Assembly (NCBI RefSeq): GCF_042180575.1
Contig: NZ_CP170094.1
Location: forward strand, 1,848,604 to 1,912,603
Direction of reading: 5' to 3'
DNA length: 64,000 bases
Origin: Bernardetia sp. OM2101
Lineage (GTDB): Bacteria > Bacteroidota > Bacteroidia > Cytophagales > Bernardetiaceae
The position numbers and the translations under genes are program-made. Every line of letters starts with the position of its first letter. Position 1 is the first letter of the stretch. Shown piece after piece: positions 29,732 through 30,545 of the stretch. Below the pieces are notes generated by a model. That model had not been told where the DNA came from and made no database searches. It was given only the letters and a program-made list of their open reading frames with translations.

Positions 29732-29765
29732 TGTAGGGCAAAGGCTTGCCTTTGACCTACAATGA
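29732..29765. repeat. REP hairpin (TGTAGGGCAAAGGCTTGCCTTTGACCTACAATGAT) at the 3-prime flank of the RAYT gene
   Basis: A perfect palindrome of the GTAGG-CAAAGGC type. Confidence 0.8.
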
Positions 29766-29776
29766 TTACATATATT

Positions 29777-30310
29777 TTATGGCGTAAAAAACGTATCATC
29801 TTCCCAGTTTTCTACATTGTTTTGAATGTAATTTGAAATGTGTTGATATGATTTTTCATCTCTAATAATGTGATCATTAAAACGAGCTTGCCAAGCAGAT
29901 TCTAATCCTAAACGATTTACGTGTTTGGTTACTCCAGACTTAAAACCTCCAATAATAGAGGAAATAGTATCTTTACCTTGATTTTGAAAGCGATTTTTCG
30001 TAAAACCTTCTGAGTTTAGTTCTGTCTTTTCTTCTATTATCATAGGCTTATCTATCGTAATAATTGTGTGCAAATGGTTTGGCATTATTACAAATTCTTC
30101 CAACTCCACATATGTTCTATGAATAGGGATTTGATGCCACAAAACATCAACTATAACACCCACTTTTGAGAGTTCCATTTTTTTATCTTTTATCTTACCA
30201 AAAAAGTGTTCTTTATTTTTAGTGCAAATAGTAATAAAATAAGCACCATTCCAATCATAATTCCACCATTCTGCTCGTATGATAGGCTTTCTGTAATTTT
30301 TATGTTTCAT
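29777..30310 (-). CDS. REP-associated tyrosine transposase (RAYT, IS200/IS605-like HUH Y1 transposase)
   Basis: 177 aa with the HUH motif (IMPNHLHTIITI) and a catalytic Tyr region (SYQHISNYIQNNVENW). REP hairpins flank it on both sides. Confidence 0.8.
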   Translation of the reverse strand: MKHKNYRKPIIRAEWWNYDWNGAYFITICTKNKEHFFGKIKDKKMELSKVGVIVDVLWHQIPIHRTYVELEEFVIMPNHLHTIITIDKPMIIEEKTELNSEGFTKNRFQNQGKDTISSIIGGFKSGVTKHVNRLGLESAWQARFNDHIIRDEKSYQHISNYIQNNVENWEDDTFFTP

Positions 30311-30335
30311 TTTGTTTTATTTGAATTTTTGAATT

Positions 30336-30360
30336 TGTAGGTCAAAGGCAAGCCTTTGAC
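30336..30360. repeat. REP (5-prime arm plus inner hairpin: TGTAGGTCAAAGGCAAGCCTTTGAC) at the 5-prime flank of RAYT
   Basis: An 18-bp segment CAAAGGCAAGCCTTTGAC is duplicated at 30516-30533, on the other side of the microsatellite. Confidence 0.75.
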
Positions 30361-30361
30361 G

Positions 30362-30515
30362 GTTTTGTGTTTTGTGTTTTGTGTTTTGTGTTTTGTGTTT
30401 TGTGTTTTGTGTTTTGTGTTTTGTGTTTTGTGTTTTGTGTTTTGTGTTTTGTGTTTTGTGTTTTGTGTTTTGTGTTTTGTGTTTTGTGTTTTGTGTTTTG
30501 TGTTTTGTGTTTTGT
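30362..30515. repeat. Perfect tandem heptanucleotide microsatellite (GTTTTGT) x 22
   Basis: 154 bp of uninterrupted GTTTTGT units. The ORF-track entries 30342-30524 and 30367-30561 are translations of this repeat. Confidence 0.95.
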
Positions 30516-30545
30516 CAAAGGCAAGCCTTTGACCTACAATGATAA
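30516..30545. repeat. REP (inner hairpin plus 3-prime arm: CAAAGGCAAGCCTTTGACCTACAATGATAATG)
   Basis: It completes the REP that was split by the microsatellite. Confidence 0.75.

Follow-up and report, generated by a model that had tools for sequence, protein, structure and literature searches.

A REP-RAYT locus in Bernardetia sp. OM2101 with a 22-unit GTTTTGT tract in the spacer of a REP doublet

GTAG REPs have been described as singletons, as head-to-head (HH) dimers with spacers of 20 to 100 bp, as tandemly reiterated clusters, and as REPtrons (Di Nocera et al. 2013, PMC3733652). In the E. coli REPtron/BIME, an HUH/Y1 gene (tnpA-REP, 4er8) lies between GTAG-tagged palindromes. In the REPINs of Pseudomonas fluorescens, which are linked to RAYTs, spaced inverted REPs fold as one hairpin (Bertels and Rainey 2011, PMC3116915). 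The regulation of RAYT genes and the upkeep of REP populations are poorly understood. Upstream of hmw1A and hmw2A in Haemophilus influenzae are perfect heptanucleotide tracts of tens of units, the repeat number of which changes by slipped-strand mispairing (PMC10127715, PMC8262952).

We analyzed a 64-kb stretch of DNA, hereafter the window, from the marine bacterium Bernardetia sp. OM2101, in which REP hairpins flank a RAYT gene (a domesticated transposase gene, the product of which is predicted to cut hairpins) and a perfect array of GTTTTGT units lies upstream of that gene. Bernardetia belongs to the Cytophagales (Bacteroidota). We consider it probable (roughly 75%) that the locus is a REPtron with a microsatellite in the spacer of a REP doublet, expanded by slippage in OM2101. 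We regard it as a known kind of element in a little-studied lineage, with a tract best explained as ordinary slippage expansion of the spacer. The locus documents a REP-RAYT system in the Cytophagales, together with its doublet architecture, and the analysis corrects a tempting misreading of the repeats as a target duplication. If the tract has an effect, RAYT regulation could conveniently be studied through a naturally occurring RAYT gene with hypermutable DNA upstream. The features discussed below are as follows, with positions counted from the first nucleotide of the window.

29732 to 29761, no strand: REP1, a single "two-faced" palindrome, T-GTAGGGCAAAGGC-TT-GCCTTTGACCTAC-A, with a 13-bp stem, one mismatch, and a 2-nt loop
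29777 to 30310, minus strand: RAYT gene, 177 amino acids, putative REP-associated HUH/Y1 tyrosine transposase, identical (100%) to "transposase [Bernardetia sp. OM2101]"
30337 to 30360, no strand: left hairpin of the doublet, GTAG followed by GTCAAAGGC-AA-GCCTTTGAC, 26 nt upstream of the RAYT ATG
30361 to 30515, no strand: spacer of the doublet, G followed by (GTTTTGT)x22, from TRF and reading of the sequence
30514 to 30537, no strand: right hairpin of the doublet, GTCAAAGGC-AA-GCCTTTGAC followed by CTAC, then a conserved AATGAT flank
30567 to 30630, plus strand: conserved block (TGAAACCTTTA...ACTTATTGTAT.TTTTACACTAA) upstream of the vault gene and outside the REPtron, from an alignment of four loci
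30777 to 33245, plus strand: major-vault-protein homolog gene (MVP_shoulder 5e-32, Vault_3), divergent from the RAYT gene

The RAYT gene and its REP hairpins

Scores of the RAYT protein against curated families fall below the cut-offs, at 54.9 bits versus 80 for NCBIfam REP_Tyr_transpos (NF047646) and 16.9 bits versus 23 for Pfam Y1_Tnp. Its close homologs are named "RayT" by JGI. A single-sequence search of the PDB returned E. coli TnpA-REP (4er8) as the sole match, and 4er8 was again the only PDB match of a profile of 24 homologs (E = 6.9e-8). The open reading frame contains the motifs MPNHLHTI and SNYIQNN. In alignment with 4er8, H79-L-H81 of the first motif falls on the HUH motif and Y161 of the second, the candidate catalytic residue, falls on the tyrosine of DYIYIN; H79, H81, and Y161 are invariant in the 24 homologs. 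An AlphaFold (AF2) model of the protein, of moderate confidence (pLDDT 72) and with two disordered stretches, places Y161 within a helix spanning residues 151 to 170. Foldseek ranked 4er8_A first for this model (E = 8.6e-7, TM 0.54/0.57, rmsd 3.1), before the ISDra2 and IS608 transposases. Together, the sequence and model comparisons point to a divergent RAYT, which the 4er8 match sets apart from IS200/IS605 TnpA.

REP1 begins 15 nt past the RAYT stop codon. Read as an undivided palindrome it is TGTAGGGCAAAGGCTTGCCTTTGACCTACA, with the GTAG tag legible on both strands. On the other side of the gene, GTAG is followed by a 9-bp stem with a 2-nt loop, at a GC content of 0.50 in a low-G+C window. 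To the right of the tract, positions 30516 to 30537 read CAAAGGC-AA-GCCTTTGAC-CTAC, and the first GT of the right hairpin, which completes its stem, is the end of the last GTTTTGT unit. As expected of an inverted REP pair, the two halves of the doublet fold onto each other as single-stranded DNA: 22 of 24 nt are paired, and the array forms the loop (dG −22.7 kcal/mol, z −8.3). The hairpin loops of the OM2101 doublet are both AA, compared with TT/AA in relatives, and the loops of the other doublets are reverse complements of each other (TT/TC in the distal hairpin, AA/GA in the RAYT-proximal hairpin). The AA/AA combination counts against spacer expansion as the whole account of the locus: it requires a further event, for which intrastrand template switching that flipped one loop and conversion between the hairpins are candidates.

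Arms of the GTAGGTCAAAGGC type occur four times in the window, compared with an expectation of 0.75, and none of 100 shuffles reached four; all of them lie at the RAYT flanks (29733, 29748 on the minus strand, 30337, and 30525 on the minus strand). A whole-window inverted-repeat finder missed the REPs, and REP1 was recovered by a custom hairpin scan. The first-pass annotation had proposed a REP-RAYT locus in which hairpins of this kind lie on both sides of the gene. Both points held: NCBIfam, the PDB, the homolog alignment, and the fold all indicate a RAYT-type HUH/Y1 enzyme, and GTAG-tagged palindromes flank its gene on either side. The further suggestion that other hairpin families in the window may be mobilized in the same way finds no support, because the custom scan detected the GTAG/CTAC tag on none of the other hairpins in the window.

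The repeats appear to be cognate to the enzyme. The same palindrome, or palindromes that co-vary with the protein, also flank homologous RAYT genes of Bernardetia relatives and of other phyla, and REP variants match particular RAYT paralogs or orthologs: CAAACGC/GCGTTTG in contig L076, GGAAAAGGC/GCCTTTTCC in L201, and GGAAATGGC in L078. Taken with the identity of the RAYT protein, the flanking hairpins mark the locus as a probable REPtron, that is, a RAYT gene between its cognate GTAG-tagged REP hairpins.

Within the 64-kb OM2101 window, no REP copies were found away from the RAYT gene, so the status of these repeats as a family in OM2101 rests on relatives. Dispersed copies in other Bernardetia DNA numbered at most two in approximately 146 kb, and one dispersed half-copy was found in L001, a relative with 91 to 93% identity. 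A scan of species-representative genomes for the full 28-nt palindrome, as opposed to doublet half-sites such as those of B. litoralis, returned 66 loci in 16 genomes. The exact palindrome was found at 28 loci in one Saprospiraceae metagenome-assembled genome (MAG) and at 21 in a Promineifilaceae (Chloroflexota) MAG, and the palindrome was also present in Ardenticatenaceae, Anaerolineae, Ignavibacteria/Chlorobi, Cytophagales, a Flexibacter MAG, and an Omnitrophota MAG. RAYT homologs adjoin it in 7 of the 66 loci. The palindrome is therefore abundant in Saprospiraceae and Chloroflexota MAGs and sparse in the sampled Bernardetia DNA, and at the family level the REP is not unique to this locus, which is the outcome that the first-pass annotation had named as speaking against its interpretation. 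A literature search with the REP sequence returned unrelated primer matches only. As separate observations, the palindrome is deeply conserved across phyla, and some REP copies lie inside RAYT genes, including an in-frame intragenic REP.

The GTTTTGT tract and its origin

In the assembled sequence, the tract is a perfect (GTTTTGT)x22 array at positions 30362 to 30515 (TRF: score 308, period 7, 22.0 copies, 100% matches). The window contains no other GTTTTGT array; overlapping two-unit matches number 21, compared with 0.17 expected. The tract is noncoding, and both of its junctions with the hairpins are clean. Its near end is 52 bp away from the RAYT ATG (30308 to 30310), and its far end is 226 bp from the open reading frame of the vault protein if counted to the TTG at 30741, the earliest potential start, or 262 bp if counted to the ATG at 30777. 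The extent of the array as first annotated and its approximate distances from the RAYT start (50 bp) and the vault gene (240 bp) are thus borne out. Other (GTTTTGT)n arrays were found in metagenomes: at least 120 loci have four or more units, and among the matches listed, none has a REP flank. Given that none of these listed arrays is REP-flanked, the pairing of REP and GTTTTGT tract is probably a local accident and not a type of element. One array (L097) had an apparent REP-like flank, which we attribute to chance; its contig is nearly free of open reading frames. Telomere-like, iteron, coding, and small-RNA readings of the tract were also dropped: it has no G-runs and no self-complementarity, every 7-nt unit would shift the reading frame, and the tract is not kept in relatives.

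For comparison, we used Bernardetia-clade contigs with close RAYT homologs, as far as these could be retrieved; among them is B. litoralis DSM 6794 (L068). The orthologous site in B. litoralis has the sequence TGTAGGTCAAAGGCTTGCCTTTGAC-GATGTTGTGTTTTGTGTTTTGTG-GCAAGCCTTTGACCTACAATGATAATG. The spacer, GATGTTGTGTTTTGTGTTTTGTG, contains two perfect GTTTTGT units and one degenerate unit, arranged as GATGTTGT-GTTTTGT-GTTTTGT, and the site is identical in a second, independent Logan assembly. The number of perfect units is therefore 22 in OM2101 and 2 in B. litoralis, a comparison between species. Apart from OM2101, all Bernardetia-clade RAYT flanks that we fetched are doublets, composed of a GTAG-hairpin, a spacer of 17 to 55 nt, and a hairpin-CTAC, and tandem reiteration of them is frequent. 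Doublets with unrelated spacers lie on one or both sides of the RAYT gene in L068, L070, L072, L073 to L075, and L199/L200. Because the RAYT flanks of relatives hold such doublets, the doublet (the "split" form) is probably a family feature that is older than the array. By the same comparison, REP1 looks like a collapsed doublet, since B. litoralis and L072 hold two to three tandem doublet units at that position.

These contigs also show other repeats near the hairpins. Some of the other spacers contain strings of the TTTTGTGTTT type (at 9826 and 9905 in L072 and at 819 in L073), and half-doublet units are reiterated two to four times in L068, L072, and L078. Two contigs that encode an identical RAYT protein differ in unit number, at least five versus two, a difference to which collapsed repeats in short-read assemblies may contribute. 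In L042, from a Saprospiraceae MAG, (GAAATAC)x3 abuts a REP. Tandem duplication beside these hairpins thus seems to be a general propensity.

Two segments on either side of the tract are identical, namely, the 18-nt direct repeat CAAAGGCAAGCCTTTGAC at 30343 to 30360 and 30516 to 30533, or, counting the last GT of the array, the perfect 20-nt direct repeat GTCAAAGGCAAGCCTTTGAC at 30341 to 30360 and 30514 to 30533. One explanation would be an insertion that duplicated its target. An undivided REP would have been cut symmetrically between GTAG and GTC on each strand, perhaps by the RAYT protein; fill-in of the 5′ overhangs would have produced a 20-nt duplication, and the tract would have been added between the two copies. 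In favor of an insertion, the duplication coincides exactly with the inner hairpin between GTAG and CTAC, both copies have the AA loop, and undivided palindromes are the usual form of the REP in other phyla. However, the orthologous sites of B. litoralis and L072 are not empty sites with a single REP but are already doublets, with a short spacer in B. litoralis; the doublets that flank Bernardetia RAYT genes generally differ in having spacers of unrelated sequence; and there is no known mechanism that adds a heptamer array at a filled-in break. We consider such an insertion highly improbable. An inverted copy of a palindrome equals a direct copy except in the loop, so the 18- to 20-nt repeat is more simply read as two copies of one palindromic hairpin than as a target duplication.

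The same evidence bears on how the first-pass annotation had interpreted the array, as splitting a single REP and as arising either through a target duplication or through microsatellite growth out of a REP loop. None of these interpretations survives the comparison with relatives. The array fills the spacer of a REP doublet, an arrangement that is normal at Bernardetia RAYT flanks, and the units in the B. litoralis spacer place the repeat outside the hairpin loops.

The tract, or its length, could also have been created by the assembler. Length errors are common in perfect tandem arrays, and a single OM2101 assembly was present in the collections searched. Against this, each of two independent B. 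litoralis assemblies has GTTTTGT units at this site, the hairpin junctions are clean on both sides, and the 5.9-Mb length of the OM2101 contig suggests long reads, which would easily span 154 bp. An artifact is, in our estimation, extremely improbable.

Slippage expansion within a preexisting doublet would proceed as follows. The upstream repeat is a REP doublet, a REPIN-like head-to-head dimer of GTAG-hairpin, spacer, and hairpin-CTAC, the ancestral spacer of which would have held a short T/G-rich proto-microsatellite; B. litoralis has two perfect GTTTTGT units there. We infer that slipped-strand mispairing during replication then took the tract of the OM2101 lineage from approximately 2 to 22 perfect units, possibly assisted by the flanking hairpins through fork stalling and stabilization of looped-out intermediates. 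The 100% purity of the array is what recent or ongoing slippage would produce, and the tract would then be unstable in length at present. The opposite direction, in which B. litoralis contracted from a longer tract, could also explain the difference; the full purity of the OM2101 tract and the decay of the first unit in B. litoralis argue for expansion in OM2101. The tract appears to be a lineage difference in spacer-repeat length, most simply a slippage expansion in OM2101. Relative to a doublet spacer of approximately 24 nt, the spacer is now 155 nt, and the DNA beyond the doublet lies approximately 130 bp farther from the RAYT start.

Neighboring genes and possible effects of the tract

OM2101 shares with B. 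litoralis and with the JGI metagenome contig L072 an arrangement in which the vault gene is followed by RAYT, yidD, an anti-sigma factor gene, and queA. The RAYT gene has the same position in OM2101, B. litoralis, and L072 and a different one in L070, a Bernardetia assembly with yidD directly beside the vault gene and with the RAYT gene, which has its own flanking repeats, approximately 4.5 kb off. In L001, synteny with the window ends exactly at REP1, and neither the vault gene nor the RAYT gene is present there. We set the start of the OM2101 vault gene by homology to the 822-amino-acid B. litoralis product; its open reading frame is open from 30741.

Because the tract lies in the intergenic region shared by the two genes, 226 to 262 bp upstream of the vault gene, it could be a promoter spacer for that gene, with the number of units setting the distance between an element and the promoter. 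TTTG is the Bacteroidetes −33 motif, and it occurs in the tract units on the vault-gene strand. However, the 64-nt conserved block at 30567 to 30630 stands between the doublet and the gene. OM2101, B. litoralis, L072, and L070 all retain this block, although the L070 site is without REP, RAYT gene, and tract. The block has no Rfam match, nor does any other part of positions 29300 to 31000 (E ≤ 1). Its persistence in L070 suggests that the tract is outside the core control region of the vault gene and is dispensable for it; the gene's own control region is most probably located between the doublet and the gene. A core-promoter spacer role of the tract is thus unlikely on this comparison, and we hold the reading in which unit number sets the promoter distance to be very improbable.

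The RAYT gene is the other candidate for an effect, as the first-pass annotation also proposed. The tract could be a contingency tract, a hypermutable GTTTTGT rheostat that alters RAYT transcription or the 5′ leader in the manner of hmw1A/hmw2A. Like the tracts of contingency loci, it is long and uninterrupted, with short units (22 at 100% identity); it differs between species (2 versus 22 units) and lies 52 bp from the RAYT ATG. Moreover, the distance from the REP end to the RAYT ATG is 26 to 40 nt in all relatives. Since a promoter and a leader would not both fit into this distance, RAYT transcription would start in or beyond the doublet, which would put the tract in the predicted promoter or 5′ untranslated region. 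There is also precedent in H. influenzae, where increases in the number of 7-bp repeats generally reduce HMW expression (PMC10127715).

Other evidence speaks against such a role. Relatives with the same RAYT architecture use unrelated spacers and manage without the tract, so it is not a conserved regulatory device. We searched the intergenic region for the Bacteroidetes-type −7 box, TAnnTTTG. On the RAYT strand, there is one exact match, beyond the doublet and beside the vault gene, approximately 410 nt from the RAYT ATG, and thus none near the RAYT gene; the other candidate on this strand, TATCATTG, has one mismatch and lies at the doublet's outer end. Overall, the intergenic region contains no convincing candidate for a promoter box of this type for either gene. 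We regard a contingency role as unlikely. Its more specific form, a switch in which the tract tunes RAYT expression and so varies the activity of the REP-maintaining enzyme from cell to cell, seems to us a distinctly long shot; if true, the REPtron would regulate itself, the dosage of its transposase being set by slippage that the hairpins promote. Most probably, the expanded tract is a selectively near-neutral by-product.

Comparison with known systems

The BrickBuilt MITE of Porphyromonas gingivalis (PMC4596501) resembles the OM2101 doublet in that a tandem array lies between inverted-repeat ends in a small, nonautonomous element of a member of the Bacteroidota. BrickBuilt, however, is a defined element with a 23-nt unit and 19 copies per genome, whereas the GTTTTGT tract is a one-off, with REP flanks at 0 of the at least 120 arrays listed.

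The tracts of hmw1A and hmw2A (PMC10127715, PMC8262952) are alike in being perfect heptanucleotide tracts of tens of units upstream of a gene. For these genes, the link between unit number and expression has been measured and the tract varies within patients, whereas the OM2101 tract is known from its sequence. The gene downstream of the tract also differs, being a transposase-like enzyme in OM2101, and the relatives of OM2101 are without the tract.

The REPINs of P. fluorescens share with the OM2101 doublet the folding of spaced inverted REPs as one hairpin and the link to a RAYT. In OM2101, the spacer is a 154-bp microsatellite, and the loops of the two halves are direct rather than inverted.

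Compared with the E. coli REPtron and other GTAG REPs, the OM2101 repeats pair GTAG with CTAC, and their single form is a perfect 28-nt palindrome that reads as a REP on both strands. The host belongs to the Cytophagales, the OM2101 RAYT scores below the NCBIfam and Pfam cut-offs, and dispersed copies are rare in the sampled Bernardetia DNA (at most two in approximately 146 kb). Nevertheless, the E. coli system is the best match in both sequence and fold, with the same arrangement of an HUH/Y1 gene between GTAG-tagged palindromes, and, as in the GTAG REP families (PMC3733652), the Bernardetia repeats occur as singles, head-to-head dimers, and tandem clusters.

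Palindrome and transposase across phyla

The 28-nt palindrome GTAGG[G/T]CAAAGGCATGCCTTTG[C/A]CCTAC, present in the window at 29733-29760, is nearly invariant among the genome-contig matches (L002-L067), whose hosts are Bacteroidota (Saprospiraceae, Cytophagales, and Ignavibacteria/Chlorobi), Chloroflexota, and one Omnitrophota MAG. The RAYTs (REP-associated HUH/Y1 tyrosine transposases) that adjoin it share only 34 to 39% identity between phyla. Conservation of the REP hairpin thus far exceeds that of the enzyme, a contrast that speaks against simple recent transfer.

Many RAYT homologs (among proteins P0011-P0112) carry an in-frame REP palindrome inside their own gene, approximately 270 to 300 nt from the start and directly past the HUH motif, where it encodes the peptide V-(G/E)-(Q/T)-(R/G)-H-A-(F/L)-(A/S)-L. 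In some homologs (P0016, P0022, and P0073), tandem peptide repeats follow directly; the Bernardetia RAYTs are without an intragenic copy.

Intragenic REP copies in RAYT genes (locus and position)
L060, 1839
L026, 1223
L029, 1098
L046, 4612
L005, 7910
L036, 2777

At paralogous or more distant RAYTs of the Bernardetia clade, the REP variants differ by compensatory stem changes, with stem pairs CAAACGC/GCGTTTG, GGAAAAGGC/GCCTTTTCC, and GGAAATGGC/GCCATTTCC (contigs encoding RAYT homologs: L076 3584, L201 2955, and L078 9760-9990), a pattern that would be expected of cognate enzyme-hairpin pairs. One Bernardetia assembly encodes two RAYT paralogs, with a separate REP variant for each.

Rearrangement and tandem iteration at the REPtron

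Between the window and a 91 to 93% identical relative (L001), synteny stops exactly at REP1, the single palindrome past the RAYT stop (L001 4411, window 29730). When another Bernardetia assembly (L070) is compared with B. litoralis DSM 6794 (L068), the RAYT gene and its hairpin doublets in L070 lie approximately 4.5 kb away, on the opposite side of queA. The REPtron (the RAYT gene with its flanking cognate REP hairpins), or DNA adjoining it, marks a rearrangement breakpoint.

Two metagenome contigs that encode identical RAYTs differ in the number of hairpin-plus-spacer tandem units 3' of the gene, with at least five in L199 (700-975) and two in L200 (630-760). The iterated unit in B. litoralis (L068 10540-10740) takes in the final ~35 nt of the RAYT gene. 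A related contig whose RAYT is 64% identical (L078) contains perfect heptanucleotide arrays, (TCACTAA)x9 at 7062-7124 and (TCACTAA)x11 at 7184-7260, within a duplicated ~120-nt unit between two genes; no REP adjoins either array. Such long heptamer tracts may recur in this lineage.

Other elements in the window

The window has two copies, approximately 880 bp apart, of another hairpin family (TGTCTGACACT..AGTGTCTGACA), which carries no tag. It also contains a perfect 36-nt palindrome and several terminator-like hairpins with A/T flanks.

Hairpins and palindrome in the window
51889-51920, untagged hairpin
52773-52800, untagged hairpin
42304-42339, perfect 36-nt palindrome

Approximately 150 to 210 nt 5' of the vault-protein (MVP homolog) gene ATG lies a 64-nt block (30567-30630) that is kept in four Bernardetia loci (the window and its equivalents in L068, L070, and the metagenome contig L072), whether the REPtron is present or absent. 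The block, which could act as a promoter, operator, or leader element, matches no Rfam family.
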